From Protoeuglena noctilucae (taxonomy: Eukaryota), in contig OY253668.1 in the NCBI GenBank assembly GCA_958009085.1, positions 1,488,001 to 1,552,000 of the forward strand: a DNA stretch of 64,000 nt. Reading direction: 5' to 3'. The notes under the pieces were generated by a model. The model saw only the letters and a program-made list of their open reading frames with translations. It ran no database searches and was not told the DNA's origin. Shown in pieces: positions 70-58,700 of the stretch; position 1 is the stretch's first letter, and each line of letters begins with the position of its first letter. Position numbers and translations under genes: made by a program.

Positions 70-3000
70 AGCTTCACGACAAGTGCAAGAGCAGCAGTTT
101 CACGCCCGCCGAGGGCATCAAGTCCTACAGCGCCCTGACGCAAGACACCAAGGAGTGGGTGGAGCAGGAGGGGCAGCCCTGCAGCGGGGAGCGTCTGCTG
201 CTCATCTACGATCGGTGGCGCAAGCTGCACAAGGCGCTCTACCTTCCCAAGAAGGGGCTCTTCGACATCTCCAAGATCCCAGACATCTACGACATGGCCA
301 AGGTGACATGCTTGACGCTAGCATATGTGGCATGGCCAAGGTGACTTTGGGTGTGGGTGTGGGTGTGTGGGCGTGGGTGTGGGTGCGTGTAACTTCTGAC
401 ACAGGTGAGCAAGTTTACAGCTGGCGAGTTAACTGCGGATGTGCTATCGTGTGCCACCCCCGCAGTACGACGCCGTGCACAACAGCCACATGGGCCTCAC
501 CAGGCTCCACGACGTGTACGGTCTGTCCAAGGTCCTGGCCAACGCGGTGGTCCCCAACGAGTACGGCATCACCGACAAGCAGAAGCTGTCCATCGGATCC
601 AAGGCGAGTGAGATGGCTCATATTAGAAGCAAGAGTTGTTGATCAGATCCAAGGCGAGTGAGATGCGTGGTAGCCAATACCAAAGCAAGAGATGTCGATT
701 GGATTCAAGGGGAAGGGTAGCGTGAGTGAAGAAGGGAGCCCGCACATGAGTGGGGGCTGCCTGGGATCGCCAGTCATTGCCAGTCGAGTAACGGCAGACG
801 TGATAAGAGCTCACGAGGCCAAGTGACAGCCCCCCTCGCGTGCCGCAGATCGCGGAGCAGCTGCTGGCCAAGGTCCTGACGGACCTGGACAACACCAAGA
901 GCGAGAGCGTGAGCACGGCGGGGCAGGAGGGGTCGGCGGCGGGGATGACGGTGGAGGACTCCCGGGCGGCGCACCTGGCCCGGAGGTACGACGAGGAGGC
1001 CATAGAGCCGCCGGTACAGGTCAAGGGCGAGGTGCCGGAGGGGCTGTCGGACTCGGAGGTGGGTGCGGGGCGGGGTGGGGTGACATGGGTGGCGGGGGTC
1101 GTTGGGGTAACAGGGGTCCACCAAGTGCTACCGAGTGTTACTGAGTTCTTCCTTTCACCGGTACTCGCCATCTCACCCCCCTCGATGCTTCCCCCGCCCC
1201 CAGGAGTCCCGGGGCGATGAGCTGGAGTCGATGCACCGGCTGTGCCCCACGTACGCGGACGGGGTCAACACGCCCCTGCGCCACGTGCGCACGAGGATCT
1301 ACTTTACCTCGGAAAGCCACTTGCACTCCCTCGTCAACGTGCTGCGGTGAGGGACAGTCTCGGCGCATTAGACATGCTGCAGCACTCGTTCACTGTTTGC
1401 GACCCTCCAGCACCCACACACGCACACGCTCGCTGCTTTCGAGGTTCCTTCACCCGCACTCACTGATACGACCACTTGCCTACCTTCTGCAACTCCCCAC
1501 ACCTGCGCTTTCCATCACCATCGCCATCGCCATCGCCCATTCCTGCAGGTACGTGCACCTGGGCAGGGATGACCTCGGGGATAACGACCGCCTGGTGAGC
1601 GACCAGGCGCGGACCATCATGTCCGAGGAGGTGCAGGAGCTGGATTACCTGAGTCAGGTCGTCTTCTGCATGTACGAGAACAAGCGCGTCCCCATCGACG
1701 ATCCCCGGAGGTTCCGAGTAGAGATACTCTTCTCACCCGGTGAGCGGCGAGTGATGGAATGTATATTGATAGATTCCCTGGCACTGGCAGGTGCCGCGTC
1801 TTCACCAGTGCCGACATGCAACTAGCCTGTCGCAACTAGCCTGTCGTGGCTGTCGAGTCGCCCGTCAGTCACCCACCGACCCTACGCCACTCTATGGCCT
1901 CGCTCCGCACCCGCGACCCCCCTCAGGCGCCGCGTACAACCCCTACGAGTGCAAGCCCGCGGACCACGTGCTTCCCACGGCCGGGCGCATCCCGCTGCAC
2001 CCGGGTGCGGGTGTGACCCTCGACGACCTGCAGCGCCTGCTGGGCCCGATCGCCACGTCTGCCGCGTCCCCGAAGGACAAGGAGAAGGAATCGAAGGAGA
2101 AGGAGTCTAAAGAGAAGGACAGGGACACCCGGGAGGGGAGGGAGAGGGAGGTGGGGTCGACAAGGGCGTCGGACTCCGGGTGAGAACTTAGTCTACGCAT
2201 GGAGGGTGGTGAAGAGAGGGGTGATGCGGCTGTGGGTGAAGTTGGGGCGAGTGGGAGCCCCACTCCTTGCACCAGACCTATATGGGAAGGAATGACGGCG
2301 ACACGAGGAGGGGTAGTTGGGTACTGTCACCCACAGTACCAGTACGGTGTGCGAGCCTGCCAGTCGCGCCCACCTCTGCCTCGCCCCTCCTTGTGCTCTG
2401 CCTATTCCCAGGTGCACCGTGCCCGCCACGCCCACCCTCCCCATACGCGACGTCCCGCAGGCGCGCCAAGCTGCAGAGGGCGGTGACGACCATCATCGCC
2501 GCCCACCGCCTGCGCAACCTGGCCGCTTCTCGGTCCAACACGCCACGCCGGTCGGAGGCACAGATGGACGAGGCGGGGGAGCGAGAGGAGCGAAAGCTGG
2601 CCTCCGTGCGAAGGTGGGCATCGGCAGTGGCAGAGGAAGGCGGAGGGGTCGGGCACTTGGGAAACTGGTGGTGACGGAGCGTGCGCATGCAATTGATGGT
2701 CTCTTGTCAGCAGCCGCGCGCCCCAAGCGCCCATCAGCAGCTCCATTCTCGCTCGCCATTCCTCAGTTTGTCTGATGCCAAAGCATTGCCCCGCATGCTC
2801 CGTGCCCCCAGCGCGCCCATCGACACGATGGACGTCGTCCGGGCCCTGGGCGTCGTGGAGAGTGCGCCGAGGGACGCCGTGGAGGCCCCGCGCGCCGCCA
2901 GGGGAGGCTCCGAGGAGGAGATGGACGCGGACGCGCTGGCCCGGCTGCCGAGCGACCGGGGCGACCAGAGCGACGGCGACAGCGAGGGGGCGTCGCCACG

Positions 3001-8620: not shown

Positions 8621-11600
8621 ATGGCTCAGGCGAGGGCGTGCGCTTTTGAGATCCGGAACTCGCTTCGCGTGGGATATTTGCGTGTTCACCTGTCGAGGCG
8701 TGCGTGGCTGAGCCTGGTGCACCCGTTGCGCCGTCCCACCGGGTCAATATCTGGATCTGTTCCGGTGGTGTCGCCCTTGCGGCAGCGGGGGACGTCCCCC
8801 GGGGCTCGTGACGTGACCGCGCTCCCTGGCATCGAAGCCGACGTCCCGTGCGCCGCGATCGCCGCAGACATCGGCGCAGTGTCCACCCCAGGGCCAGGCC
8901 TGGGCAGCCCCACGGCCACGAGCTCCGCGCGGGTTCTCCTGCACCGGCCGAGCACCGACGCCGCGGTCCGCGTCGAAGATGATTCGGGACGTGCGGCAGC
9001 ATGCGGGCTCGAAGAATGCGGCGTTCGATTTCGGAGGCGTGAAGGACCTGCGCCCCGGGTCGACGATGGCCCCCAGTTACGGCAGCCCGCCGCCGAATCC
9101 GGACAAAGGGCGTCGCGCTGGCATCGTGCTGCACCCCACGTCACTTCCGGGGCCTTACGGAACGGGCGACATGGGCCCGGACGCCCTCAAGTTCGTCGAT
9201 TGGCTGGCCGCAGCGGGGATGCAAGCGTGGCAGGTGGGCGCAGCGCCCGGCCGACGCCGATCACGCCGGAGGCGTCGAGCCGGCCATCAATCAGTCGCGC
9301 ACTGACCGTCCCCCCCCGCCCGCTCCCTCCCCTGGCCAGGTGCTGCCCCTCGTACCCCCGGAGCGCCAGTACTGGTCGCCTTACTCTGGGGAGGACGGCC
9401 TGTGCGGCAACACCCTGCTGATCAACTTAGAGCTCCTGGTCAAGGACGGCCTCTTGGCTGGATCCGACCTGCCCCCGGTGCGGTGCCCGACTGCGGCAGC
9501 CTAACAGCTGGGACACGGTGCAGACAGCTGGCCGTGCCATCAGCCATCTTCGCAGAGCCTCACGCGCCCGTAAGTGACTCCGTGAAGTCACCGGGCCCAC
9601 TTGCGTATCCCCACCCCTGATGGCTCACAGGCATTGCCGGAAGAGGACGCGTCTGGGCGTGCACTGAAGTGCGACTTCGAGGCAGCGGCGAAGATCAAGG
9701 ACCCGCTGCTGGCCAAGGCGGCCCGGAAGCTTGTGGACGGCGTTAACAAGGCGATGGCCAAGGACATGGCCGCATGGCGGAAGGCCAACGCCTGGGTGGA
9801 GGACAGCGCTGTCTTCCATGCCATCAGCACACAGGTGGGCCAGCATGGGACGATGGAATACGCCGTACTTGCCGCGCCAGCCGCGGTGCGCACCCTCCTG
9901 CCAGCGTGCTTGCGCTGGCTGCATGATGCGATGCGTGTGCGCGCTGTGTTCGCAGGAGCCGGAGTGCATTGGAAAGGACTGGTGGGACTGGGAGCCTGGG
10001 CTGCGGGACCGGAAGCCCGAGACGATGACGGCCGTGAAGTGAGTCCCACGCTTGGTCGTCACAGACTTGTCCTTGACTGCTGGTGCAGGTCAGATGGGAC
10101 GCTGGTGGGTCGCACTGGTTGCATTGCTTGCACTAAAGCACTGGCTCGCATACCCTTGCAGGGAGAAGTACCGGGGGCTGATTGACGAGTTCGTTGCCAA
10201 GCAGTTCCTCTTCTACCGCCAGTGGGCGCGCATCCGCCAGTACGCCAACAGCAAGGGCATCAAGATTATCGGGGACATGCCCATCTACGGTGAGCGGATT
10301 AGTTACGAGAGAATTACGAAGCGTACTCAAACCTGTCCGATGCTCTTGTGGAGACCCGCTGCCTTCCAGCCAGCTTCACGGCACGTTTGCTCCGCCGCCC
10401 ACCTTCCCGCCCCCGCTCCCTTGCCATGTCACCCGCTGTGCCACCCCCCCCAGCTGATTGCTTGACCTTCCCTGTTCCCTCTCGCCTAACAGTGGGCGGC
10501 AACAGCGCCGACGTGTGGGCGTACGCGGACCTCTTCGAGCTTGGCCCAGACCGCAAGCCTCTGCTTGTCTCCGGGGTGCCCCCGGACGCGTTCAGCGAGA
10601 CGGGGCAGCTGTGGGGGAGCCCGCTGTACGACTGGCAGGCTCACGACAAGGACGGATACCGCTGGTGGGTGCGGAGGATGCGGCAGAGCCTAGAGGCGTG
10701 CGACGAGTTACGCGTCGACCACTTCCGGGGGTTCGCGGGGTACTGGGCCGTGGAGGCGACGCGGGAGACGGCGATGATTGGGGAGTGGAAGGCGGGGCCG
10801 GGCACGAGGTGAGGCGGGGCCAGCGCTGGCGTCGGTGTAGGAGCGCCGGCCGTTGCCCCGTGCTGTTCTGAAGTCGCGACCCAACAGCATGTTGGCTCCG
10901 CAGGCTGTTTGAGGCGCTCAGGAGAGAGGTCGGGGAGGTGCCCATCCTGGCTGAGGATCTAGGCGTGATTACCCCGGACGTGCATGAGCTGCGGAACGCG
11001 ATCGGGGCTCCGGGGATGGTCGTGCTGCAGTTCGCATGGGGGGGTGGCCCGACCAACACGCACCTCCCGCACAACCACTACGAGAACTGCTTCGCCTACC
11101 CCGGGACGCACGACAACGGTGAGTGGTGCTCAACATGGCGCTGCATGGGTTAGTGCAATTGGTCACCAGGGCCGCAGTTGACAATCCTGCCTTCCGTCGG
11201 CGCAGACACGACGGTAGGCTGGTGGAAGCGCATCCCAGAGGCGGAGCGGATCATGCTGCGGCGCTACCTGGGGACGTCCGGGGACGACATCGCCTGGGAG
11301 CTGACGCAGGCGTGCTTCGCGAGCGTGGCGCGCACCGCCATCGTGTGCATGCAGGACGTGATGCGACTGGACAACGAGGAGGGGCGCATGAACACCCCCG
11401 GTACCAAGGAGGTGCGTGAGGCTGGCGGGTGCCCGGCCGCACGTTGACTGACCCATCGATTGCGACGCATGCGTGTGTCGGACTGTCTGTTAGGACAGGG
11501 TTTGCAATGGAGCTGACTACAGTTGGGTTCTCGCAGAACAACTGGCGGTGGCGCATGGGGTCCCGGAAGGTGCTCGATCGGCTGGCTCCCGAGGCGCGTG

Positions 11601-14878: not shown

Positions 14879-16747
14879 CTAGGTGGCGACCGCAGGACCC
14901 CCTTGGTGCGATGCGTCCCCGTCGCCCGACCCGTCGCTCCTCTCCGTCATGGTCGGGAGCGGCGAGAAGCCGAGTGGGTCTCGCGGGGGAGTCCGCCCGA
15001 GCGGGGAAGGACCCCACCATTGCGAACTCCCCCCGCCCTTCCCACGCGCGCTCCCATTCGCCTCCCTGCCGTGTGCCGACAACCCGGGCTCTCCTTCCCC
15101 GCCACGCCCGCCCTCCGGCCCCCGGTCCCGCCGCCCGCTCCGCTCCCAGTCCGCCGACCCCCGCCACGCCCCCGGCCCGCCTGGGCCCCCCGCGACCCCT
15201 TCCGGGCGCCCGGCCCGCCCCTCCCGTGCCGGCGACCCGGGCGCGCTGCCGTCCCCGTTCGGCCGAGCCCCCGCCCCCGCCGCCATCAGGGCGCGCGCCT
15301 CCGCGAGCCCCTGCGCCAGCCGCGACCCGTGCGGCGCCGAGATGCCCAGCGACGACTTGACCTCGTGCACGCGCCGGAAGTGCTCCAGCTGCGTCTCCGG
15401 GACAATGTGCGCCACCAGCGCCGGCGTCAGCACCACCTCCGCGTCACCCACTGCGTGACCCGGGGCGGCACCCACGTCTCGCACTGCACACCCCACGCAT
15501 GAGCTCACGACAGCCGCCCACCAGCCGCCACGGCCTCTCGCCTGGGATGGTGATGGGCACGTGCACCTTGCCGTCCAGCGCGCCGTCGACGAGGCCGCGG
15601 CAGCACCCCGGGCAGAGCTTGCGCCCCCGCTCGAGCACCGCGGGCATGCCCCGGCGGAGCTCCTGGTAGCCCAGGCACAGGCGGCAGTAGTAGCCGACCT
15701 CGGCGACGATCGCGCCCATCGCTTCCAACTCGTCGAGCGAGTGATGCATGATACGGTACAAGTCCTCGTGCTCGTCGGGCTGCGGGGACAGCGCTGACAC
15801 ACGTATGAGCGTCTGGCAGCCTCGGGCTGTGTTTGGGACCATGCGGCCGGTGACGCGCGGAGATCGCTCGCCTGTGGTCCGAGGGCGCAGAGCTGCTTGA
15901 ACAACCACGTGTTGATCTCCGTGCTGGCTGCGGGGTCCCGGGACTGCTTGCGTGCCCGCGCCGTCTCCGCAAGGCGCATCGCGGCGCCGGACGCGAACGC
16001 GGACAGGGAGGCCTCGGAGATGGAGTGGTTGGCCGCGTTGCGCCCCACGCTGCTGCTGTTGGAGTTGGTGCGCTGCAGAAAGGCGATGGCCGTGCCCCTG
16101 CAGGCGAGCACCAGGGGCGCGGATATCGTTTGCAGAGAGGACTCGCGACGCAAGCGAGGTCCTCCGTAGCACGGCACCGCGCGCTCGCCTCGGGATGCCG
16201 GACAGCCTCCGCAGATGGATGTCCTGCTCGAGGCGCTGTAGCCCGGCCGCCCGGCGCGCCTCCATCAGCTGCTGCACCTTCTGCTGCAGCACATCCCGCT
16301 GCTGGCTCTGCGAGAGGAACGGCAGCGGGGGACGGTTGCGGGCGAGTCGCAAGTCGCAAGCGTGGAACGCCGCGGTCCCAGTGCACGCACCAGGGGGCGG
16401 ACGCGGTAGGCCTCCGTGACGACCGCATAGAGGCCGAGGGCCACCAGCAGCGACGTCTCCCATACGCCCCTTGCGGGGAAGAGCAGCCGCACGGCCCAGG
16501 TCAGCGTGGTGCAGAGCAGCACAAGCAAGGCCACGCGGAGGGCAGCACGCCTCAGGCGACTCCCCGCTTCATCCTGCGATGAAGGAACGGAACGATCGGC
16601 GATGCAGCGACCGGAACAGCGCGCGCGGCCCTCGGCTCGCGTTTCCTTTGCCGACTGCGTCGGTTTGCGGACCTTTTTTAACCCCCGAGGGTCGTTGTCC
16701 AGGAGACGCTGCTGCCAGCTGCGCGTGAAAATGGACACGCGTCCCAT
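14879..16747 (-). CDS. Hypothetical two-TM membrane protein with degenerate RING-like zinc motif
   Basis: Exons MGRVSIFTRSWQQRLL.., ALRVALLVLLCTTLTWAV..SLLVALGLYAVV (hydrophobic), coiled-coil-like QQKVQQLMEARR, YYCRLC..LCPGCC; 3' end uncertain. Confidence 0.6.
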
Positions 16748-17343: not shown

Positions 17344-19022
17344 ATGCATTTGGCCCAGAAGGGCTGTCCATTCGCCGGTGGGGGGTTCCGGAAGCACGTG
17401 GGGTGAGGATATCTGCAGGATTAGTTGACACAGAGGCTCTGGGATCCGGCCTCGACGCGGTGCGCCTCGATGAGGTGGATAGCGGCCAACCCTCGCCCCT
17501 CGCCCGCCGGCGCCGCAGATGCAGCTATTTCCGACAACCTGTGCGTAACTCTCGCGGAGTGGGCTTCTTGGTGGAGGCGAAGAAGGGCCTGGCGGAGGTG
17601 GGCAGAGCGGAATTTGCGGCTGCCTGTTCCGCGCCCCCGTCCGCGGTCGCTCACGCCGATATCTCCCTGCCTGCAGCTGCTGAAGGTGCGAGGGGCCCAG
17701 CAGGAGAAGGGTCGGCTCAAGCCGGGGAAGGTCGGGCCGCCGCGACCTGTGCCGGACTCCATTCCCCGGCCGCCCTACGCCGCGACGGGTGAGGGCCCCC
17801 AGCGCCGCCGCATTCGTCCGCGGCAGTGCGGCGCGATGCAATCTTTCATTTTGAATTACCACGCAAGCTCCCCGGCCACAGGCGAGAACCCCCCGTTTGG
17901 CAAGGACCCCGAGGTCCACGACGCAGCAGGCATCGTCAAGATGCGGGCGTCGGGGCGGCTCACGGCGTCGGTCTTGCGCCGCGCAGGGGAGCTGGTCAAG
18001 CCGGGCGTGACGACGGACGCGATCGATGCCGCCGTGCACGGGTGGATTGTGGAGGCCGGCGCGTACCCATCGCCGCTCAACTACGGGCGCTTTCCAAAGG
18101 TGAAGGCTCCCTGTCCCTGGAGACGCCGGCAGCGGCACGCATCCGCGCCGGTCACTTTCCCGTCATCCGCGACCCCCTTTGCGCTCCCGCAGTCCGTGTG
18201 CACGTCGGTGAACGAGTGCCTGTGCCACGGGATCCCCGACAGCCGGCCCCTCGAGGAGGGCGACATCATCAACATCGACGTGACCGTCTATCTGGACGGC
18301 TACCACGGCGACTGCTCGAACATGTTTGTCGTGGGGAAGTGCTCGGCGGACGCACAAAGGCTCATTGATGCAAACAGGCGAGTGCGACTCGGGGGAGGCA
18401 AAGCTTGCAGGGGGTGCACGGGGTTCGACGTGCGCGTTTGAGCGAGCCGTGCGTGCGCGGGACACTGCCGCTCATGGGGACGCTGCCGCCACCCCTGCAA
18501 CCGACGCAGGGAGGCTCTGGATGAGGCGATCGCCAAGTGCGGGCCGGGGGTGCCCTTCCGGGAGATTGGGGCCGTGATCGAGACGGTGGCTCGGCGGCAT
18601 AAGGTCAACGTGTGCAAGGACTTCATCGGCCATGGCGTGGGCAAGGTGAGATGTGGCGACAGACCATAGGCATGGGTAGTGTTTCACGCCATCTCACAGG
18701 GGTCAGGAGAGGTTGCGGGGTCGCATGCGTGTGGATCACGTAGCGGAGCGCATGGTCACGCTCCAACCGAGCCTATGCGCTCTCCGCGCAGGCCTTCCAC
18801 GCCCCGCCGGCCGTGCTGCCCCATCGCAACAGCGAGCCGGGCAAGATGCAGCTGGGCCAGACCTTCACGATCGAGCCCATCTTCGTCCTCGGTTCCCCCC
18901 GCTTCCGCATTTGGAACGACCAGTGGACCGCCGTCACGCTGGATGGCAGCTGGGCCGCCCAGCACGAGCACACGGTCCTCATCACCCCCGACGGCTGCGA
19001 AATCCTGACCAAGGAAGACTAG
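17344..19022 (+). CDS. MAP1: Organellar methionine aminopeptidase type 1 (MAP1B/MAP1D-like)
   Basis: VPDSIPRPPYA, GAYPSPLNYGRFPK|SVCTSVNECLCHGIPD, NIDVTVYLDGYHGD, FIGHGVG, TFTIEP, AAQHEHTVLIT; TAG 19020-19022; start tentative. Confidence 0.93.
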
Positions 19023-39007: not shown

Positions 39008-40464
39008 ATGGCGAGCAGCCTGCAGTCGGCGGCCCTGGCGGGGGGCCTTCTCGCCCAGAGGTCGGAGGGTCCCCGCGCGTCCCACGTGTCGCGAGCGGCG
39101 ACGACACCGTCTCGGTCATGTCGGACCGCGGCGATGTCCCCCAAAGTCGGGGCAACGAGCGTGGCCACGCCGCTGGAGGAGTGGACGGTTCTGTACCCCC
39201 CCTCGCTCGTCAGGACGCCTCAGCAGCAGGTGACATACGCTCGCGACCGTCACGGCTGTCGAAGCTGCTGGCTTGCTGACCCTGCATGGGTCGTCCCGCT
39301 CGGGACGGGCCGCTGCGGTGGTTTGCTGTTTGCGAGCACGCAAGCGGCGTGGCGCCGGCGCGGAGGGGCGCTTGTTCGCAGATCCGCAAGCACGGGTGGC
39401 CTCGTTAGTCTCGTGGCGCGCTGCTCGCCGGAAGACGCCGCGAAATCCGGCCGCAAACCGCGCGTGCTCGGCCTCCGCAGGTTCCGGCCCCACCCCAGGC
39501 CCGCGTGAGCGCGTTGGAGCTGGAGCCGCCGTCGTGCCCGTACTTCGGACCGATCGACGCGCTGGACGTCGTGTCTTTGGAGCGGCTCTACATCAGGTGC
39601 GCGCGGGACACGGTGCTTGCGGTGCGGTGGGGGAGCTTGCGATGTTTGGCAGCGTTGTGACCCCCCCGCGCCCCCTCCCACCCACTCTTGTGCAGGGCTA
39701 AGGAGCTTTACTACGACGGCCAGCCGATCATGGCGGACAACGTCTTCGACGAGCTGGAGCTGCGGCTACGGCAGGCGGGGTCGGAGGTGGTGCGCAAGTA
39801 CCCGCGCTGCTCGCTCCGGCGGTCGCGGACGATGTACGCGGACGCGGACGAGGACCTGACGCAGGAGGCGACGCTCGGGGTGCTCTGGCGGGTGCTGGCG
39901 GTGGGCGGGCTGGTGGCCACGACCCTGCCCGTGCTGGGGGCCGTGCAGGCGTACCTCACATCGGAGCCCGCCACGGTCGGGGCGCCGGCGGGGACGCTCA
40001 TGGCGGCGGGGTCGCTCCTGGGCCTCGTGGCGGGGTGGCCGTTGGTGTCGACGTGCCTGGAGGGCGCGGGGAAGCTCCGGCGCATGCACACGCACGCACT
40101 GCGCGGGCACTGCCCCCACTGCGCCGCGGAGGTCTACCAGTTCGTCAGCAGCGAGGGCGTCCCGCCGCGCGACGCGGACGGCAAGACGTTCTTGAGGGAG
40201 GAGTCGGAGTGCCACGTGTGCGGCACGCCCATCGAGTTCCGAGCGTTCGTGGCCGACAGGCGAGTTACACACGCGGCGGCGCTTGTTACGGCGCCGAGCT
40301 TCTGCTTTCCCGGCGCGCTTCATCGCAGCGCCGCCCGCCCTCGCAGGGACAACCACCTGGTGCGCGTCGTGGGGGAGGGGCCGTTGCGCACGCTGGGCAA
40401 GACGAAGTGGGTGTACGGTCGCGTGTACGCACGGGTCACCGTTCACGATTTGGCGCCCAAGTGA
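39008..40464 (+). CDS. PGRL2: PGRL1-family thylakoid protein, PGRL2-like
   Basis: PSCPYFGPID..LERLYIR|AKELYYDGQPIMADNVFDELELRLR..KYPRCSLRR..YADADED, two TMs, GHCPHC, ECHVC. Confidence 0.8.
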
Positions 40465-40630: not shown

Positions 40631-43378
40631 CTAGATCTTGAGGGCGAGGAACGTGTTGGCGAACGTCTTGCAGACGAGAACGTAGCGTATGACGCGCTTG
40701 TCGTTGAGGAGCTTGCGCAGGTACACGAGGGGTGGCCCCAGGGGCCCCAGGTAGGGAGGGAGGGTGCGGAGCAGGTTGAAGTGGACGGATCGTGCTATGA
40801 CGGGGATGAGAGAGATGGACTTGGCCCGGAACGCCATAGAGCACGCGCGCGAGAATTTCTTGAACTGCGCACTCATCGTCATCCCCTGCGAGCCGGCACG
40901 AAAGGATGCTGTCGTACAGACCAGGAGGAAGCTACCGTCTTGTCGCTGTGCGAGAGAAAGCCTCTCATAGCCGCAGGACGCTGCCGGGGTTTGCCAGGGA
41001 CTGCCCCTTGCCTTGGTCTTGCCCACGGCTTGAATCAGCGCCGTCACGTCGGAGCCCTCCTCCTCCACCACGACCAGGATCCTGGCGGCGAGCTCTCGCA
41101 AAGCCATGCGTTTGTTCCACGACGCCCTCACCGTCATGATAGCCCCCACGGCGTTGATGAGGTCGAGTTGCAAAACCTGGACCGGCAGAGGCGAGCGGCA
41201 CGTCGCGGGCGCTCCCAGCACATGCCTGCGCGTGTGCCTGTGCCTGCGCCCACCCCAACGCCTCCCTCGCCTGAACAAGCACGTTCAGTGCCCCCGTCAT
41301 GCCTATCAACGAGTAGCCGGCCTCCGCGCGCCGCAGGTTGCCGATCAGCTCTTTGAAAAAGCGCTCTTGGTCTTTGCTGAACTCAAACTCCTGTTGCTCC
41401 TGCGTCACCTGCGTACGCGAGACAGGCAAAGGCCAGCATGCCTCGACCGAGGCCAGCGTAATGGACCAAGGCTCTCTGTCACCAAAGGCCGCTGCGCCCT
41501 TGCCTTCTCCAGCCACCCCTCGATGAGCTGCGAGTCGCCGTCCGATAACGGCGGCGCGCCCTGTGGAGCACGGGGGTGCCGGGGATGGCCGTCATGCCTG
41601 CGCATGAAGCTTTGCGTACACCTGCCATGACTTTTCGAATCTCTCACCTTCACACCCAGTGCCGGCGAGCCTTGCGATGCCTGGGAGCTCTCTCGCGTGC
41701 GTCTCGCGCGGTCCCCCGCCTCCTGGCCGTCAGGGCCGGCGGTCCCCGCGACCCCCATGCTGCTGCTGCCCTCCCGGCTGGCACCCGGGGGTGCCCCCGC
41801 GGCCAGAACTCCGCCCCTGCCCTCCCCCGCACCAGGTGCCGCCCTGGCTGCCTTGATCCTCTCCACGATCGCCGACAGCTCCGACGCGGAGGGGTCGTCC
41901 GTCAGCGCGAAGTTGGCCTGGATGATGCGAAGGGGCTCCAACGCGCGGCGCAAGAGGGAAGCCCGGGTGGACGAGCCCTCGAGGTTGGGGGCGCCAACGA
42001 CAATGTCCAGAACACGCAGCAGGGCGAGGAGCGCCAGGAGGACTGCGAGCGGAGGGAGATGGGGCGGTGCTGGCATGGACAGCGCCATGAGAGGAACGGA
42101 GTGGGCAAGGGGGTCGGCCAGTGGAGCACAGACCGTGTTTGCATGTCCACCCGCATCCATCTCTCGCCTGAGACGACCATGCCCATGTTGGCCCACGTGG
42201 CCGCCGTGGTGGTCAGCGACACGATGGCCTTGACCACGAGCACGCCCCCCAGCTGCTGGTACAGCACTGAGACGTCGGACATGCCCGCGAGGAGGTACTC
42301 CATGTCGGATCCCGACGACTCGCTGATTCGCTGGAAATTGCGAGACCCTGCATGAGTCACACCCACGGGCCGCTCCCCTGTGCTTGGCTCAGCCGGCTGG
42401 GCTGATGGCGCAGGCGGGTTTGCGACGCTCACCTCCGTAGATGAGCATTGCCAGCACATAGTCGTTGAGGCCGTCGGCCAGCGCCCGCAGCCACGGCCCC
42501 ACGCGGACCTCCCTGGTCCACAGCAGAACGGCCCCAGTTGCGATCGCGTGCGCTACGAGCCACAGGTACCCAGTGGCTGCCTCGTCCATCGACTTGGCCA
42601 ACTCCCCAAACGCCTCCTCCTCCTCCCCCGAGAACTCATAGCACTTGCCTGCAATCAGTGCGCGAGGGATGGCACGATGTGCAACGAGCGCACCCAAGGA
42701 CTGATAAGGAGCCCGTGTGACGCTAGGAATGCGCACCAGCGGCCGCCTTGGCCAAGTTGTTGGACTTTTGTTGGCTCAAATGCCTTGAGGCTTGGGGAAG
42801 GAGCAATCGCAAGGGTTTCCCGCTCTGCGAGGTATGTTGCGTGTCGCATTTTATTGCCTTCCATCGCGTCGCTGTCGCTGCCGGTGGATGAGTGAGCCAG
42901 GATCCGCGCTCGGGGGGGACAAGGAGGGACAACCGTGTTTTGCAGCAAGCGGCTCGCCTTTTGGTATTTCCTCAACGCTTGCTGCAAGGTCGTGAGGTCG
43001 TTAAACATGGTAAGTCCGTCAGGATGTCCTCCAGCTGCTCTGCGAACACCACGAATGCAACGAACTTTATTGAGGTACGGACGCAGCACACGCCGATGCC
43101 GCAGCGCACGGTCTACCAACAGCTTGGTGCACTGCTTGTCTTTCCCATGAAACTGGATTGCCGTCGAGCCTCGTCTCTTCCGGTGAGTTATGGCCTGAAG
43201 AAGGTAATGCCCTTGCCATCCTGCATGTTTCTCGTCTATATTTCCTTCCTCTTCTCTCCTTCACTCGTCAGCACCCATACCCAGCGCTCTCTACGCTCTC
43301 TCCCGCAGATAGTCGCCGCGTGCCACTGCGTCGCGGTAATGCGGGCGGCAGCGCTCTCGCAGCTGACCGAGACAACAT
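40631..43378 (-). CDS. Hypothetical multi-pass membrane protein with an internally duplicated domain
   Basis: Unit 1 YEFSGEEEEAFGELAKSM..FQRISESSGSDMEYLLAGM; unit 2 FEFSKDQERFFKELIGNL..ILVVVEEEGSDVTALIQAV; start uncertain. Confidence 0.65.
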
Positions 43379-43701: not shown

Positions 43702-45204
43702 ATGGATTCTGGACGTCGCGGTGCCCGCAGCAAGGACCGGGAGGCGACGGTGGGGGCATGCCCTGACCATCACGTGCCAAAGCCCTCGTGGCTAGGGCCC
43801 AGGTTCCGCAACCCATGGCCCACGTTTAGGTTCCCGACGTTCTCCGACATGCGGAAGCTGTTTTCGTCCAACGGCGACAGCCCAGACGCGCCACGCAAGA
43901 CGGTGCTGTCGCGCATGGTCACGGATACCAACGGGGCGTGGCTGCTGAACAACGCGCGGCCGACACTACGGGACATCGCCGCGCGTTTCCCGGTCGTCTC
44001 GTCGCCGGACTTCGACGCTCTGGCGAATCCCCCCCAGGACGCCGTCCAGGCCATGTGGGTCGGGCACGCGACCTGCCTGGTGCAGATGGAGGGTGCCACG
44101 TTCATCACAGACCCGGTCTTCTCCGAGCGCGCCTCCCCCGTGCGATGGGCCGGGCCCAAGCGCCTCGTGCCGGTCCCCTTCGAGATCGAGGACCCCCGCG
44201 TCCCAGACATCGACTTCGTTCTCCTCTCGCACGCGCATTACGGCGAGTCGGCCGCCATGTGACATGACAATGTCAAAGCTTTGTTATTACAAGTGACTGT
44301 TCCAACTGCTACCCTTTGTGTATGTTCAGACCACCTGGACGTGGGCAGCGTGCAGCGCATCCACGCCCGCTGGGGTGACGACGTGCGGTGGTACGTGCCG
44401 CTCGGCCTGCGCCCGTGGTTCAAGGCGCGCGGCGTCTCCAACGTCGTCGAGATGGACTGGTGGGAGGAGGTCAAGGACCCGAAGACGGGTCTGACAGTCA
44501 TCATGACCCCGGCACAGCACTGGAGCAATCGGTACGGGTTCTTCGACTTCAACTGGTGGCTGTGGGGCGGCTTCGCTGTGCGTGGGGAGCGCCTGCGTTT
44601 CTGGTTCGCTGGGGATACGGGGTACTGCGAGGTCTTTGAGGAAATTGGGCAGCGGCTGGGGCCTTTCGACTTGGCGGCCGTTCCCATCGGAGCGTACGGT
44701 GAGCCCTTGGGGTGGGCTTGGTGGGAAGAGAGGGAGCACGGAGGTGCTGGAGGCGAGACTGATGATCCTGAAGTCTGTCGTGCACGCAGACCCGCGCTGG
44801 TTCATGCGCAGCCAGCACTGCGACCCCGGGGAGGCGGTGCTGATTCACAGGGACGTGCGGGCACGGATGAGCATCCCGATCCACTGGGGCACGTTCGGTG
44901 AGTGCGGCAGAGCACGTCTGCACTTGCGCCGTGCGTGGGGCCACTTGCTGGTCAAACAAAGGCAAGGGCTCTGCAAGACCCCCACAACCAGAAGAGCTTT
45001 CGTTCTCGCGCAGTTCTGACGACGGAGGCGCTAGACGAGCCGCCCCTCAAGCTGGAGGAGGCATGCCGGGAGTACGGGGTCGACCAGCGCACTTTCCGGC
45101 CACTCCAACACGGGGAGCTCGTCAAGGTGGCGCAGAAGGAGCCGGGGGCATTCGATGCCGTGCGCAAAATGGCTGCGGCCGCGACGGGCGCCTTTGCGGG
45201 GTAG
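43702..45204 (+). CDS. NAPEPLD: N-acyl-phosphatidylethanolamine-hydrolysing phospholipase D (metallo-beta-lactamase fold)
   Basis: [59 protein letters not shown]. Confidence 0.92.
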
Positions 45205-45374
45205 CAGGACCTGTACAGACTGCCCCTCTCCGTCAGCGCCCGTCTTACTGATCCAACGCGCAACGCCTCTATTCAACTTAAACACCAGCGTCGGAACGAG
45301 CCCAGCCACCAGAGCCTGCCAGACAAACACGGTTCCACTCATTTGCCGCAACGCCGCCTTTCCTATGCCGAGCC

Positions 45375-48300
45375 TCAGGCAGCAGCCTGCTCTCCGCCCT
45401 CCACCGCCGCTTCTCGCTCTTCCAGCCTCAGGCCACGAATGATGTCCTCATAGTACAACCCAGACGCCTCGACCGACGCCCGGGCCACCTTCAGGACCAC
45501 CGCCGCCACCGCCTCGGCCTCTGGGCGGAGGATCTCGGCACCAACGCTCCGCAGCGTCAGCGCGCAACCGTCCGGCTGGTCCTTGCGCATGCTGTTCGCG
45601 CGCAGCAGGGCCCCCGGAGAGCCCTGCATGTCGCTCCCGGACCTCGCGCCTGCGAGGTCGCCCTCCGTGCCCCGTTGCGGCGACCCCCCCGGCCCATCCT
45701 CCACCCCCGCCTCCGCGCCCAGTGTAGCCGCCGCGGCCCTCACGCGCTGCGCCGTCACCGCACTCGACTCGACCGTCGGCCCCAGCGCCCCCGCCATGAC
45801 CGCCTCGGGGTCTTGCAGGATGGGCTGCAGCACCAGCTGAGCCACGGCCGCCGCCGTCTGTCGGAGGAACTTGGAGAGCACGGTGCTGCCCGGACTGAGC
45901 TCCTTGCGCAGGAAGACTGCGACGTGGCGGTCGTCTTGCCGGCCTGCGCGCGAGACACCGGCAGGCGACGACCAGTTTCCTCAGTGTGATTGGGACACGG
46001 TCGCCACTATAAGCAATCGTATCAATGCATGAGAGACGCTCTATGTGGTTCCACGCGCAGGTCCCGCCGCGTCTCACCGTCGTCATCGCCGCCGTCCTCG
46101 ATGTCTGGGGCCCGGACGGACGCGGGCGGCATCTGCCCTGGGTTCGGCGACCCATCCCACGTCTTGCCGCGCGACCTGACGTGCATCGCCATCAAGTTGC
46201 TGCAAGCAGTCGGGGAGAGAGGGGTGATGGCAGCGCGAGGTGATGCCTGACGACCAAGCGGAGCTGCAGCGGAGGCGGACAGCTGCACGAGAGCAGACGC
46301 GCGTCTTGGCGTTGAGGCAAGCTAAGGCAGTGTCCGGTTCAGCGTGGGGCTCACCAGGCCTCCGCAATGATGAAGTCAAGCGTGGTGGGGGAATCGAGGA
46401 GAACCGAGAAGCGCGATACCAGGCGGTCCATGAAGTCGAGGTCGGGAGGGCATCCCTTGGCGACCAGGAAGTTTCTGGCGGTGAGCATCAGGAAGGCCGT
46501 GACGGCGAGGGACTGGGCCTGGTTCTGGAGCCACACCAGGGCGTCCACATCCAGCACCTGCGAGTAGCAGAGAGGAATGTGCAGGGTTCGCGCACAGCGT
46601 TGCGCATGGCGCAGGGGCATTGCATGCTAGTTGCATACTAGGCATGCAACGGTTGCATATAAGCATTCACGCACCAGCGTCTCCGGGACGGAGAGGGCCC
46701 CCACCGGGGCCGGCCGCTGCATGATCTCGAGGACCCCCGCCGTGGCAAGGAAGAGCACGCGGGCGGGCGAGCCACTCGGCAGCCCCCGCACGCCCCCGAC
46801 GCCGCCCGGCCCCAGCGCCGCGTCCGCCGCGTCGGAGAGCCACTTGACGCACCGCGGGAACACCTCGGCGGGCGTCTTGTCCCCGATGAGCCGATCGAAG
46901 AATCGGCGCTCGTACGCCGCACCGCCGCCGTCCTCCTCGACGCTCCGCTGCAGCAAGTGCATCTGCGGGGACGGGCGAGACCGGAACATCGCAGCTGCGA
47001 TGTCCGAGGAAGCGCTGCCAGATGTGCAAGCATCGACTGGCCGGCCTGAGGCATGCTATGCTGCTGGTCTCTCAAGGACCACCACAGCTGTAGGCCTGGA
47101 AACCTTGAAATGGCCCCTAGCAACATTCGTTCCCCCGCTTACGTGGAACTTGAAAGTGTCTGACTGAAGCTGCTTCAGGATGCGGCGGACGAGCCATGCT
47201 GCCTCTGTCATCGAAGCCGCCAGGGGGGTCACTGCGACGATTTTCGAATGTTGCATGGAGTGACTCTACAAGTCAATCAACAGATCACACAGCAGGGTCA
47301 TGTTGCAACTCAAGACTCGATGCCCAGTCACACTCCGGCACCTGTGCGCAAGCTGCGAGTGCCCCGCTCCCGCCACCCCGCTCACCCGCCACCTCCTCCT
47401 CCCCATCCTTCACCGTCACCCCCACGATCCTCCGCCCCTCGGCCTCCTCCGCCCCCGCCTCCCCCCGCAGCCTCCGCAGCAGCCCAGAGAAATCCGCACG
47501 GATTTGATCCTCCCGGGCAGGGCTGCCCATCCTGACCACCACGTCCACCACGAACTCCAAAAGCTGGGAAAGGTACTCCAGATCCGCGGGCATGTCCACG
47601 ATTCTGCAGCGGAGCGGGCGGCGGATCCCACTCAACGAATCGACCACGCCGCGCCAGTCCATGCGCATCGCTCGTCGGCACATGACACAGGGCAATGGCC
47701 ACAGAGAGGGATGGGAAGCAAAGGTCACTTGTGACGCATGTAATCTTCCTCCAGCCGCGCGGCAATCTGGTCGGCCAGCTGCGCCCGAGTGCCCTCCAGC
47801 CCACTGCCCGTCCCGGGCCCGAGCAGCCCGCTCATCCCATGCAGCTGCCTCAGGAGGGTGTCGCGCACATCGAGGAACAGCGTCAGGACGTGCGACATGT
47901 CCGGAGGGTTGCGCGAGAGGCCGAGCGCCAGGGTGTCCAAGAAAGCACGTTCGGCCGTCTTCTGAATCTGCGGGCGCCCCTCGAGTGCGAGTGGTGAAAG
48001 GGGGGTCGACACCGCAGCGCGCGGGCGTGGAACGGGCGTTCAGCACTGCAGGCAACGTCCGAACGCGCCTGCTTCTTCACGGTCGTGAACGGGTCCCCGT
48101 CGCTGCCCGCGTCGTCGGCATCGTCCGATCCCATCTGCAGCCCCCACGTTTCCAAGAAGTTGTCGCCCTCCATGCGAAGCTTGTGAACCAGCTGCAGGGT
48201 TTGCGGCACCCTGTGAAGATGGAAGAGGGCGGGGCGCTCGTGCGAGAAGTGGAGAAAGGCGGGCAGGAGCGCACAGCGAACCTCCGCGACGCACTCACCG

Positions 48301-49200: not shown

Positions 49201-52200
49201 ATGGAAAGGGAGCAGGAGGGGGCGCTGGCCCCGCCAGGCACCACTCCCCACACGGCGGTAATGGCCCTGAGCGTCCGGTGCGTGGAGCGCCTGCAGCAGC
49301 GTGCACTCGCACCGCAAGCACGCAAAGTGCATCTTGCCGTGCTCCCATGATGGACCTGGATCGGCAAGGTTGCGAGGGATCGCCAGGTGCGCGCGCCGGG
49401 CAGGAGTGGAGCACTCCGCCCTCGCAGGCAACCGTGGGCGTCGTTGATTGTCCACGGCATCCGCACGTTGGAGACGCGGGGCTTCGTGCCGTCCTACCGA
49501 GGTTATATCTGGATTCATGCCACGTCCGCTGAGCCCGAAGTCGACGTGAGATGACTGGAGCCCATGCCTTGTGCTGCCATGTTGCGCTACGCTGGTGTCG
49601 GCGAGGCAGGGTCCTCCCTCGCGCTTACTTGCAGATGATCATCGACGTGCAAGATTTTTATAAGCGTTTGCACGAATCTGAGGGGAGAAATATCAGGCTC
49701 CCTCGCTCCTATCCAACCGGGTGTCTCGGTGGGTGTCACGGCGTGGCAGGCTGGCGACCATGCGGAGTCGTGGAGCGCCCGTGCAAGCTCGCGCCCTCCC
49801 CGCCCGCAGTGGGATGCGTGCGACTGGTGGCCGTGCTCGACCGGCAGAGCTTCGACAACTGGCCCAACCTGCCCCGATCCATCACGTCCGACGCCGGCAA
49901 TTCCAACCTCAACGTCTGGCTCCTCCAGGATCCTTACTTCTTCCCGGGTCGCGACTTCCGCATCCGCATCCACGCGGCTCGCAAGCGCCTCTTCGCCATC
50001 GACCCCGTGGCAGCGGCCGCTGCAGCCGCGCGACTCCGGCCCCCGAACGACAAGTGGGTGCGTGGGACGCCCCTGGTGCAATTCACCAGCATCCCAAACA
50101 TGCCCAGGTGCGACGCAACGCGACGGTGGGCGCCCATGGCTCTTCGCCCTGGCAAGAACCGAAGCTGTAGAGGAACGCGTTTTGGCGTCGCCGGGGAGGT
50201 GCTGGTCGGATGGGCTGATACCGTGGCGGCGGTCGCAGGCAGGCGCGTGCGGATGGCGAGCCGGACGACGAGGACCACAGCCACGATGGGGAGATCAAGG
50301 ACCCGTTGCGCAGGGCTCGCTTCATCGTATCGCAAGACGTCACGGTCCTCACCTCCCTCGCCCACGGCGACTCCCTCCCGGAGGGTGCAGGTGCGGCCGC
50401 CGCCGAGCGCACGGCGTGGATGTGGTCAGCGGAACCCATCTGCCACACGCTCTCCGGTAACGTTGATTGAGGGGCTGCGTCGACCACAGAGCGCCAGGCA
50501 AGCCTCCCGGTGGCCGTACCGCAGAGCCCATGCCGTCCCGCCCTTCGTTCGTGTTCAACCTCGGACACGCGGGCCCGCGCGTGCCGGACGGCATCACCAA
50601 GCGCGCCGTCGCGGATCTCAAGCCGCTCCTGCACAAGTTCCCATCCCTGGGGTCCAACCTCGAGGTGAGGCCGTGGGCGCAGGGCCAGCTCTCCCGGCGT
50701 CAACTGTGCCCAAGACACCCAACGCACCTGGCAAATGTGAATGGTCTCCTCGGTGCGAGTAACGTTCTCCGGCGCAACATCGTGGTCCTCGCACAGCACG
50801 CTCACATGTTTAGAACCCCCCCTGCTCTTGCTTGCCAGGAGTTCACGCACAAGGTCGGGATCGCTGGCGACAGGGATGACCAGCAGCGGCGCGGATGGGT
50901 GCAGGAGGTGGCGCGAATGACGCCGGTGAGAGCGCAGGATGAGGCCTTGTCGTGGCGGGGGCGGCGTCCCGAGACACAGCCCCCCTGGCATGGGCGCAGC
51001 TCCACCTGTTGCGGTCGTGTAAAACTCGCAGGAGGAGCGCCGGGACCGCTTGCTGCAGCTGCAGCGGCTGGCGGCGGCGGAGCGTGACCCGCGCGTCAAG
51101 GAGGTGCTCCTGGTCCAGGCCCGGCAGGTCAAGATGGTCATCCAGATGCAAAACGAGGGCGGGGTGCGCCTGGTGAGCCGCGCCCGGAGGGCCCCAGGCT
51201 GAGAAGCTTCCCTCGCTCTGCAAACGCACGAGACTTTGCCGTGACCGTGCGACCGCAGACGGAGGACGTCATTTCCAAAATCATGGCGGGCGTCGGTCGC
51301 ATGGACGACCAGCCGGTGCCGGGCACCCCTCTAGGCAGCGTGGTGAGCGCATGGATGGCGCAGCGGTGGCCCAGATGCCCGTGCGCCAACATGGCTCTCC
51401 TGGCTGCATTTATCAGCTGAGCGTGACAGTGACGCGCATGACTCTCTGCAGTTCTCCTCGACGTCGGAGATGCACCGCGGAGAGGGAGTGCTGGGGAGCC
51501 GCGTCTCGCACCTCCGCGTGGCCAACGTGGTGGCATCGCAGCGGCGCATGGGCCCGCCGCCGGACGAGCCACACGCCTCCGCCCCGCACTCCGCATCTAA
51601 GACGAGATGGGACGCGATGGTCCAGGCGAGTCGCTTGCCTCACGTCGACGCACAGGGACGAGGGTCATGACACACACGCATCCCCATGCTCATCATGTCG
51701 CCCCCTCTTCACGAGTGCGAGTTGTCAGCAGGTGGACCTCGCCCGCTCATCGTCCGCAGGAGGTGAAGCAGCGAGAAGAGCTGCGCGCATCGAGCACCCT
51801 CCTCTCCTCCCCCGCCGTCGACTCAGGGCAGGCCCCCAAGCACTCCATCCGGGCCATCATACGCAGTGAGACTTGCCCCGCCTCGGCCAGAGCTACGCTA
51901 TCATCCAGCGTCTTGCAAACTGATGCTAAATCTTGTTACGCGGACCACGAACCCGACCACTTCCCGCCGCAGGCGTGAGCGCCGTGATGTCTGAAACACG
52001 GTCGGCGACCTCGGAGCCCGCCACCGCCCTGGCCACGGCGCCCGACGCGGGCTTGCCGTCCGTCCGCTCCTCCACGCGCCTCGACACCTTGACGTCCGCC
52101 CAGGCAGGGCATAAGCTACAGGACCTGTGCCCGCCACCGGAGACGATCCGAGTGAGCGCGGCGGTCAAGCTGCCCGAGATCGGGAGGCAGAACCTGACCG

Positions 52201-55718: not shown

Positions 55719-58700
55719 CTATGCGTCTTCGGCGCCCTTGGTCCCCGCGGCGCCCTTCTTGGCCACCGCCTCCGCGGCCTTGCCGGCAACGTCGACCACC
55801 TTGCCCGTCGCGCCCGCCACCTTGCCGGTGGCGTCCGACATCGCCGTCGCCACGCCCCGCGCCGTCCTCCACGCCTTCACGACGTCGTCGATGAACTCCT
55901 GCGAGTTGTTGTACTCGGAGAGCCGCTTGACGATCGAGAGCTGGATCCCCAGGACCCCGACGAACTGCAGCGTCGACTTCCAGTCGTACAGAAGCAGCGC
56001 CGAGGCACCCAGGCCCCCGACGATGCCCGCCACGCGCCAGGGGTCGCTCAGCAGCACCCGCGCCTCCTCCGCCACGTACTCGACTGCGGGGCGCCGAGGA
56101 CGGGCACGCAACGCTGAGAGGGCCACGCGAAAGCACCCCGACCCCCCTGTTCTTACCATTCCATGGCTTTGCTTTTACACTACCCGTGACCTGGCGAGGC
56201 CACCCCGCCCCAGTCATGAAAGCATCGTGGCCGGCTGCTGCACGGCCAGGCACCCACCGTCGTCTGCGATGACTCGGATGGTCCCTCCCTCGTACGCCGT
56301 GGTGCCGTCCAGAACCTCGAGCTTGTCTCCCTTCCAACCCCGGAACCCCCCGTCCAGCACGTACGGCTGGCGCACCCCCATGCGACGCAGCGTCCGGGCC
56401 AGGGCAATCATGTTGGACTCGGAAGGGCCCATCACGACGATCGACATGTCCTCGCTGCGAGGAGAGAGCGGCGCCCCGAGCGGCGCGTCGCTGCGAGCCC
56501 AGCAACGAGGCTGCAGCGGCCCCCGAAGGCCCTCTCGCTCGCGTAGCTGACCGCGCTGCTCGGCTCACCTGAGCCCCTTGAGGCCGAGGATGCGCACAGC
56601 GTGGATGTCGAGCTCGAGCTGCCCCGGCGTCCGCACCAGCCTCGCGAGCTCTGACTCCAGAGGCTCCCCAGGAACCGCCACCGCCATCTGCCGCGCACGC
56701 CGCCTCAGCTTGGGGATGCCCTCCCTGCGATCCAAGGGGGCGCGTGAGTAATAAAAGCACCGCATGTCGAAGAAAACCCGGATAGCGAAGGCAAACGCCG
56801 CAGGTCCGTCACATAGCCATGCGCCCCGCACCTGGCCCGCACTCGCTCATCCCGCGTGTCGATGAGGACAGCCCGGCCCTTGCTCATCAGCTGCAGGCAC
56901 TTGGTGGCCCCCATCTTCCCCGAGTAGCCCCCGAACTCCTTGTCGTACCACAGGTAGATGGGCAGGCCCACGGCTGTGCCGACCAGGATGAAGTCGCCGT
57001 ATGGCAGCGCACGGACGAGCTCGACCGAGGCGCCGATCAGGGACGTCACAAACTTGGCCACACCCTGGAGCGGGGGCGACACGAATGACGTGGGATAGGC
57101 GACGCACTGCCCCATGCTGCGGCAACAGAGCAAGCGCAGCCACTGCTGCCACCGCTGCCACCCGTCGTCGACTCGCCTGCGTCGGCTGCGGCAGCGTGTC
57201 CACCCCCTGGGCAATCGCCACCTCGGCTTTGGTGATGACCAGCGCCAGCTTGGCCTGGGTCTCTCCCAGGGCCCCCGCCACCGCGTCCTCAATCGCCTTC
57301 TCAATCGCAGAGATCTGGTCTGCCACCTTCCCGACCACTCCGCCCGTCATCGAGTCCACTTGGCTCGCGACCCCCCCGAACCCCTCCTCAATGTCCTCCC
57401 GCACAATGTCGATGTCCTCCTTGACCACCCCCAGCACCCCTGCGTGCGCGTGAGCAGGTGCAGGTCAGCGCTCGGTGGGCTACGTGCCTTTGCGTGGCGC
57501 TTCTCGCTCAGCGGAGGCTGCCAGCTCTGCTTTAGAGCCTGAAGCAGCGCGGACGTCTGGGCCCAGGCGCGTGTCCTGCCAGGTGCGCACCTGAGAATGC
57601 CTCCTGGACCGAGCTGGTCACGCCCGACACGGCACCCGACAGGGACTCCTCGACGCCGTTGATGGCCTTGGCGATGCCGCTGCTCTCGGCAGGGGCATCC
57701 GCGTTCGGAAGCGCGTCTGCTATGGACGCAGGCGGCACCGACTCCGGCGCAGGCACGGCAGGCTCGGGCGTGGCCGGCGCAGAGGCTGCGGAAGTCTGCG
57801 GGCATGTAACACACCACTGAGCTGGTCAGTCACACCCGCAGTCCCTTGCAGGCAGCCAGGCAGTGGAGCTTAGACGAGCATCGCCACGCGGCGTCACCTC
57901 CGGGGCCGACGCGGCTGCTGGCTCGGCCGGCGCAGACGAGGCCTCCGCCGCCGGTGGTTCGGGTGCGGCGGCCGGCGCATCCTTGACAGGCGCCTCCGCC
58001 TTCACGGCAGGCTCTGCCTCCTTCACTGGTGCTGGTGCCTCCTTGGCGGTCGTCGCTGCCTCCTTCGCAGGCGCCTCCACCTCGGCTGCCTTCGTGGTCA
58101 CCTCCGCAGCGGCGGACGACGCACTCGGCGCCGACTCCTCCGCCGCCTGGGGCGCGGGCGCAGGGGCCGGGGCGGCAGGGGCGTCATCCTTGGGTGCCTC
58201 CGAAGCGCCGCCGAACTTGGGCAGATCCAGCTTGGGCATGTCGAGGCTCGGCATGCTGAACTTGGGCATGTCAAGCTTGGGCATGTCCACGTCGGGCATG
58301 CTGAACTTGGGCATCCCCAGCTTGGAGACGTCCACCTCCGGGAGGTCGAGCTTGGGGGCCTCCAGGTCAGGGAGCGCCGCCGAGGTCGCCTCTCCCTCCG
58401 CCGCCCCGCCCTGCGGCAAGCTCCCTTCGGGCGCGCTGACCTCGGGCAGGTCGAGCTTGGGCATGTCGAGCTTGGGCATGTCGAGCTTCGGCATCCCGAA
58501 CTTGGGCATGTCGAACTTGGGCATGTCCTCGAATTTCGGCATGTCGAACTTGGGCAGGTCCACGTCCGGCAGCTCCAGCTTGGGCGCGTCGGCCTTGGGC
58601 AAGTCCACGGCAGGCACGTCCGGCTTGGGCGCCTCGACCGGCTGCGGCACCTCCACGGGCCTCTCGGGAGCCGCGGGGGGCGCCTTCGCCGACGGAGCTT

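Follow-up and report, generated by a model that had tools for sequence, protein, structure and literature searches.

GC-AG introns are frequent in a 64-kb window of Protoeuglena noctilucae and fall almost entirely in one donor class

Introns that begin with GC and end with AG make up about 1% of introns in animals and plants (PMC3167603, PMC6310983, PMC11732430), with a plant average of 1.2% (PMC6310983). Human GC donors are spliced by the U2-type spliceosome, and a stronger consensus at their remaining positions compensates (PMC3167603). Several microalgae have higher shares. In the pelagophytes Aureococcus anophagefferens and Pelagomonas calceolata, 14-17% and about 14% of introns are GC-AG, which was ascribed to high GC content (bioRxiv 10.1101/2024.10.30.620910). 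GC donors make up 56% of 241 curated junctions of Emiliania huxleyi, a share likewise ascribed to GC content (PMC4028052). Among green algae, the supplementary table of PMC6310983 gives 7.0% for Micractinium conductrix, 5.7% for Chlorella sorokiniana, 5.6% for Micromonas pusilla and 3.2% for Tetrabaena, and less than 2% in six other algal rows (Chlorella variabilis 0.7%); the table is annotation-based and pools GC-AG with AT-AC introns, and ten of its algal rows with counts are compared here. We describe here the introns of a 64,000-nucleotide stretch of the Protoeuglena noctilucae genome (GenBank assembly GCA_958009085.1, contig OY253668.1, positions 1,488,001 to 1,552,000; hereafter the window). 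About one intron in 8 to 10 starts with GC in this window, a real and well supported feature, and nearly all such donors belong to the class AG/GYRAG, where the slash marks the exon-intron border and positions are counted from it, negative in the exon and positive in the intron.

GC-AG-rich intron sets are already known in GC-rich microalgae, and the share found here ranks level with or above the highest green-algal values compared; the new contribution is an explicit donor-class rule. An original prediction, made from the sequence alone, had set the window against a baseline of about 1%, which derives from animals and land plants; shares of 5-60% have been published for GC-rich microalgae. 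Like their U2-type counterparts in animals and plants, the GC-AG introns of the window have GC..AG ends, a stronger-than-average remaining donor and no U12 motif, but they are about ten times commoner, position +3 is mostly G, and C exceeds T within AG/GYRAG. The pelagophytes are also GC-rich marine microalgae with a GC-AG share of similar order, and their introns are 100-180 nt long (bioRxiv 10.1101/2024.10.30.620910). They are, however, stramenopiles with an intron density below one per gene, whereas here it is about five, and a donor-class rule is absent from the accessible text of that source. Emiliania resembles the window in its GC-rich genome, its RNA-verified GC donors and the errors of GT-biased gene finders, but there GC is the majority donor and GA donors exist, whereas here GC is a minority donor within one class, and no GA donor occurs among the best 15 of 54 RNA joints. 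Micractinium conductrix, Chlorella sorokiniana and Micromonas pusilla share with the window a raised proportion of major non-canonical sites; the proportion in the window reaches as much as double theirs, in a different lineage that is probably the Pedinophyceae. No published report of GC-AG introns in pedinophytes was found in a search that left most subscription journals outside, and the preprint on strain YPF-701 is silent on splicing.

The window has a GC content of 67% and its genes are densely packed. Introns were taken from a simple gene model followed by curation by hand and eye, which gave 137 introns in 26 genes, about five per gene, with a median length near 110 nt. Introns truncated by the window ends or lying within unresolved 5' regions were excluded, as was the MYB-labelled intron ending at 33407, whose donor is ambiguous. 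The names PPIP5K, DPE1, MetAP, lactamase fold and TFIIF beta come from database searches, TFIIF beta falling below the Pfam cut-off; PSA7, RING, Kir, RibH, PAM68, MYB, TCP11, ASCH and CAS are presumed identities assigned from the translations. Homologues of PPIP5K are from core chlorophytes. In a quick one-gene tree of 39 rows, with long branches and no named prasinophyte row, the spliced DPE1 protein falls beside Pedinophyceae sp. YPF-701 and a single unnamed row (SH-aLRT 99); its identity to YPF-701 is 56%. Judged from these sequences, the host is likely a marine pedinophyte-like green alga.

Nineteen of the 137 introns are GC-AG (13.9%, confidence interval [CI] 8.6-20.8), or 17 (12.4%) without the two weakest sites. 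Counting only sites backed by RNA or homology leaves 14 (10.2%, CI 5.7-16.6; against 1.2%, p=1.5e-9). The high share proposed originally, about 12 among roughly 100-130 introns, is confirmed and was slightly understated. The share is 11/52 inside the stretch compared with RNA and 8/85 outside it (9.4%, CI 4.2-17.7), and 12 of the 26 genes have at least one GC donor. The string AGGCRAG occurs 42 times in the window against 26.8 +/- 5.3 in 100 shuffles, none of which reaches 42; this excess of about 15 copies is independent of the gene model, and 17 of the 42 copies are curated donors. As a check on circularity, a matrix whose training set held GT donors alone was applied with a 1% GC prior and recovered 17 of the 19 GC sites, with a coding model that had already seen the GC-flanking exons. 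Without a GC penalty it recovered all 19 plus eight extra weak candidates.

Splicing of GC introns is directly visible in RNA. Between 35700 and 45600, 54-60% of sequence words are present in four marine metatranscriptome runs from a single study. RNA contigs of three of these runs (X1, X2 and X3) and a DNA run (X7) were compared with positions 35650-55600, picked for holding six of the originally predicted candidates, and no differing letters were listed; runs X5 and X6, with small shares, were left out. The best 15 of 54 joints were inspected, each present in all three RNA runs and absent from the DNA run. When all equivalent cuts are resolved, eight are GT..AG and seven are GC..AG, and at each of the seven GC..AG is the sole reading compatible with GT, GC or AT. 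Seven of 54 would still exceed 1.2% if all the other 39 joints were GT (p=4e-6). The verified donors are 36385, 40260, 41270 and 42167, all predicted originally, and 42957, 41503 and 41011, which had been missed. At 41503 the GC donor is spliced despite an in-frame GT donor 21 nt downstream. Donors 41503 and 41011 carry GCAAG, so the "fixed" GCGAG motif of the original prediction is really AG/GC(G/A)AG. Each inspected joint has a single contig form per run; contigs drop rare forms and are unable to gauge intron retention or minor alternative use of GT. Indirect RNA evidence exists for 44243, where contig pieces stop at 44241 (X1 and X2) and begin at 44329 (X3), and for 51626, where the loose end of one X1 contig equals the next exon. 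The curated GC-AG introns are listed in Table 1.

Table 1. The 19 curated GC-AG introns of the window. On the minus strand the donor is the higher coordinate. The word "new" marks introns not in the original prediction.
Intron	Donor	Position	Strand	Evidence
PPIP5K	AAG/GCGAGT	604..848	+	colinear in 12/12 homologues at IGSK/I; nearby in-frame GT donors lead to stops
DPE1 (4-alpha-glucanotransferase), first intron, N-terminal extension	CAG/GCGAGG	8630..8867	+	gene model and open frame only
Gene 14879-16747	CAG/GCGAGA	15451..15541	-	colinear in 10/10 homologue rows reaching the site
Gene 14879-16747	CAG/GCGAGC	15780..15871	-	colinear in 12/12 homologues; in-frame GT absent within 60 nt
Gene 14879-16747, new	GAG/GCGAGC	16098..16188	-	open frame; homologues without insertion at junction, looser alignment
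MetAP (methionine aminopeptidase)	CAG/GCGAGT	18378..18509	+	flanking exons match consecutive PDB 8khm residues 188/189/190
Gene 35750-37612	CAG/GCGAGG	36385..36490	+	RNA joint in X1, X2, X3; absent from DNA run X7
Small membrane-protein-like gene, probable intron, new	CAG/GCGAGC	38275..38381	-	gene model and open frame only
Gene 39008-40464	CAG/GCGAGT	40260..40346	+	RNA joint, 3/3 RNA runs
Gene 40631-43008, new	AAG/GCAAGG	40886..41011	-	RNA joint, 3/3 RNA runs
Gene 40631-43008	CAG/GCGAGG	41177..41270	-	RNA joint, 3/3 RNA runs
Gene 40631-43008, new	AAG/GCAAGG	41409..41503	-	RNA joint, 3/3 RNA runs
Gene 40631-43008	CAG/GCGAGA	42043..42167	-	RNA joint, 3/3 RNA runs
Gene 40631-43008, new	AAG/GCGAGC	42825..42957	-	RNA joint, 3/3 RNA runs
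Metallo-beta-lactamase-fold gene, inside HAHYDH motif	ACG/GCGAGT	44243..44329	+	RNA contig piece ends at junction
Gene 45375-48810, possible intron, weak, outside GCRAG class, new	CAG/GCGCGT	47968..48068	-	gene model only; weak in-frame GT 12 nt upstream
Gene 50530-53262	CAG/GCGAGT	51626..51759	+	X1 loose end, 15 letters
Gene 55719-59458, probable intron, acceptor 57065 or 57117	CAG/GCGAGT	57065..57176	-	gene model only; several weak GT donors also lie in frame
Gene 55719-59458, possible first intron, new	GAG/GCGAGC	59271..59432	-	gene model and open frame only

The 12 donors predicted originally all carry the sequence claimed for them (11 AG/GCGAG and one CG/GCGAG), and none was refuted: four have RNA joints, two indirect RNA, four colinear homologues and two (8630 and 57176) a gene model only. 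The PPIP5K and MetAP junctions had been described as forced by conserved protein, and homologues bear this out. At 44243, in the gene labelled NAPE-PLD in the original prediction, PF12706 matches both flanking exons and an in-frame GT is absent within 60 nt. Beyond the three RNA-verified additions, the prediction missed 16188, backed by homology, and 38381, 59432 and 48068, which with 8630 and 57176 are the model-only sites of the set. The region around 8630 is not conserved, and the GT-trained matrix finds this donor only without a GC penalty. A GC call at 16789 was dropped because a GT donor at 16672 yields an open frame. Further GC calls were dropped as false or unsupported at 27386, 28719, 28790-28897, 31240/31254, 33242/33350, 33428 and 14980-15111, and at 42857, 42982, 48468, 49601, 53959 and 57993.

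The warning that GT-only gene finders would mis-annotate such DNA proved apt. A GT-only run split PPIP5K, trimmed a MetAP exon by 13 codons, and displaced junctions in the metallo-beta-lactamase-fold gene and in gene 40631-43008. Since 12 of 26 genes have a GC donor and the GT-only model broke or trimmed several, annotation of the Protoeuglena noctilucae genome and its relatives must permit GC donors.

GC donors are gated by the rest of the donor sequence. Within AG/GYRAG, 17 of 30 donors are GC; the other classes contribute one of 37 (BG/GYRAG), one of 20 (AG/GYGCG) and none of the remaining 50, a total of 2/107. The RNA joints alone, again the best 15 of 54, give seven of eight inside the class and none of seven outside it (Fisher p=0.0014). 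The share of C within the class (17/30=0.57) matches that of the intron bodies, where C/(C+T)=0.62 (p=0.58). The analysis demonstrates GC..AG introns in the window with their borders, the gating by class and the agreement with background. The consensus AG/GC(G/A)AG is present in 17 of 19 GC donors, and -1G and +5G are fixed in all 19. Positions other than +2 are nearer the U1-complementary consensus in GC donors, which match it on average 5.9 times out of 7 where GT donors do so 4.6 times (Mann-Whitney p=1e-8; 19 GC and 114 GT donors, counted before seven coordinate fixes). Among the 118 GT donors, -2A and +4A occur together in 28, singly in 38 and 38, and not at all in 14. The two are anticorrelated (odds ratio 0.27, p=0.0014), yet they occur together in 17 of 19 GC donors. 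Length, GC content and acceptor are alike in GC and GT introns, a GCAG acceptor being present in 16/19 and 98/118, respectively. The curated models ignore 53 exonic BG/GCRAG motifs as donors. A U12-type reading was rejected, as the motif ATCCT follows the first two bases in none of the 19 GC or 118 GT donors. Two further differences were seen: +6T occurs in 7/19 GC donors and 0/13 AG/GTRAG donors, and a YTRAY branch-point-like motif lies in the last 70 nt of 1/19 GC and 31/118 GT introns (Fisher p=0.045, among several comparisons made).

The class rule recurs in a chlorophyte metagenome contig of 60% GC (L052), whose PPIP5K gene (208-4736, +) has three GC donors among 15, all AG/GC(A/G)AG: three of four donors inside AG/GYRAG and none of 11 outside it (p=0.009). 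Six closely similar Trebouxia-like loci have no GC donor in 18 (L006), 15, 10, 6, 6 and 4 junctions, and a seventh has none in two; these loci are not independent, have 49-52% GC and belong to a homology-guided donor calling on 17 related loci. "GC" calls in L003, L012, L023, L027-L031, L033 and L034 have no donor consensus, resemble in-frame protein insertions and were not used. The related loci include no clean GC-rich control, and L052 alone was read by hand.

These observations are probably best explained by an ordinary U2 spliceosome that tolerates +2C when the exon- and intron-side contacts are intact, with GC-biased drift filling the class. Donors in this genome would bear roughly one weak contact. 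GT donors typically keep either -2A on the exon side, where U1 and U5 loop 1 are the presumed partners, or +4A on the intron side, presumably read by U1 and the U6 ACAGA. AG/GYRAG donors, having both contacts, would withstand the loss of +2U. Within this class +2 would be near-neutral and would drift from T to background composition, mostly C at 67% GC, and GC-biased mutation or gene conversion may supply the C. About 22% of donors in the class, with about 60% C, would yield 12-14% GC-AG. Because +2 reaches background composition only in AG/GYRAG, the GC-biased drift put forward in the original prediction is supported in a sharper form. A two-class model of 5' splice sites, AG//GU and //GURAG, has been described, together with the suggestion that cooperative contacts with U5 and U6 compensate for +2C (PMC11732430). 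The substitution of -2A for +4A, and the presence of both in GC donors, fit that model, and the gate of 17/30 against 2/107 with a background-level +2 ties the present rule to it. In the accessible literature the microalgal GC-AG excess has so far been credited to GC content; the class gate gives a quantitative, testable rule.

Several points weigh against this explanation. The majority of the 137 introns depend on our own model and visual curation, which could miss weak GC donors, as the eight extra candidates obtained without a penalty show. With 30 donors in the class, the interval for its C share is wide (0.37-0.75). GC is weaker than GT, since sense exons hold four unused AG/GCRAG motifs, two of them in RNA-covered exons, and no unused AG/GTRAG. 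The Chlamydomonas genome has a GC content of about 64%. Of its introns in expressed sequence tags (EST), 532 of 25,592 are GC-AG (2.1%; PMC2846911 Table 2), so GC content alone is insufficient, although BLAST-based EST counts may under-call GC donors. A change from GT to GC was not observed, close relatives not having been found. PPIP5K intron positions 303, 604, 1347 and 1740 have no intron in any motif-readable locus among 80 fetched, which are mostly distant or intron-free; all four positions (one GC, three GT) are unshared, in comparison with distant relatives only. As a separate observation, the unshared PPIP5K positions (303-1926, +; compared with L003, L006-L016, L027-L034 and L052) hint at extensive intron turnover in the lineage.

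It is also conceivable, though doubtful, that +2 is no longer selected once the flanking contacts are intact because donor recognition has changed in this lineage. The GC-AG share of a genome would then equal its share of AG/GYRAG donors times the background C fraction times a species-specific tolerance, near 1 in this alga, low in Chlamydomonas and combined with a widened permissive class in Emiliania; such a graded natural series would help to locate the spliceosome parts that read +2U. More specifically, the lineage's spliceosome may be altered in the sequence or modification of U1 or U6, or in Prp8, U1C, Luc7 or SNRNP27K, and so discriminate less against +2C than that of other green algae, which we consider unlikely. 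At 10-14% the share exceeds the Chlamydomonas EST value about 5- to 7-fold and reaches as much as double the 7.0% of Micractinium, the highest of the ten annotated rows with counts that were compared. The 19-site count exceeds a Micractinium-level 7% (p=0.003), but the 14 best-supported sites do not do so significantly (p=0.10), and the annotated shares of other algae are probably under-counts, to judge by the 0.7% of Chlorella variabilis against the 5.7% of C. sorokiniana. A background-level +2 in the best class does amount to almost no selection there, and at 41503 GC is preferred over the nearby in-frame GT. However, GC is restricted to a single strong class, as it is in humans, the other donor positions are under tight constraint, and the identical rule holds in the unrelated green-algal contig L052. 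An Rfam search of the window gave no match. The relaxed U1/U6 recognition offered in the original prediction is neither shown by these data nor needed for them.

It is quite improbable that the GC introns are lineage-specific gains born with GC donors, through an introner-type transposon or duplication of exonic AGGC. The tested PPIP5K positions are indeed absent from other green-algal loci, but three of these unshared positions are GT introns. GC introns cluster by gene (5/8 and 3/5; permutation p=0.016), but this clustering tracks the AG/GYRAG donors per gene (7/8 in gene 40631-43008). At 604 a tandem duplication places the exon end and GC donor within the intron; junction microhomology, however, is 3.26 for GC introns and 3.30 for AG-preceded GT introns. 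An all-against-all BLAST of the 137 introns returned only 13-18-letter matches and no family, within one window, where old or rare families would escape. An introner family was rejected for this window, there being no common sequence among the introns and no target-site duplication beyond the AG/G overlap. It is highly improbable that selection keeps GC donors as weak sites through which intron retention or alternative splicing can be tuned and regulated, for although alternatively spliced introns of humans are enriched for GC donors (PMC3167603) and intronic reads are pervasive in Emiliania (PMC4028052), here +2C is at the background frequency expected under neutrality, each inspected joint has one contig form per run (rare forms being lost in contigs), and the donors are spread over 12 of 26 unrelated genes.

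Other features of these genes were noted. In PPIP5K (577-721, +) the GC intron has three tandem copies of the exon end and donor, spaced by 50-56 nt, with a second intact AAG/GCGAGT, out of frame, at 654. Two tandem copies of exon end and donor also occur at the GT intron 303 (284-345, +). Such copies are possibly a route to donor sliding or intron growth. Gene 40631-43008 (-) encodes a protein of about 480 residues for which the exons tried gave no usable Pfam or Atlas match; seven of its eight donors are AG/GYRAG, against a window average of 22%, and five are GC. The product of gene 14879-16747 (-) has paired cysteine motifs and 16 relatives in a 50%-identity library, one of which, P0190, is a mis-predicted fragment reading through its introns. 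RNA contigs span the 3' ends of two convergent pairs, at 37477-37870 (35750-37612/37703-38396) and 40344-40884 (39008-40464/40631-43008), which suggests overlapping 3' untranslated regions, the contigs being unable to show single transcripts. A GT-AG intron of 567 nt, five times the median, lies in a 5' untranslated region at 35106-35672 (+), on the basis of the loose end of one RNA contig. In its N-terminal part the protein of gene 55719-59458 (-) has short K-[LF]-[DG]-[ML]-P repeats arranged in a long array, encoded at 58180-58640.

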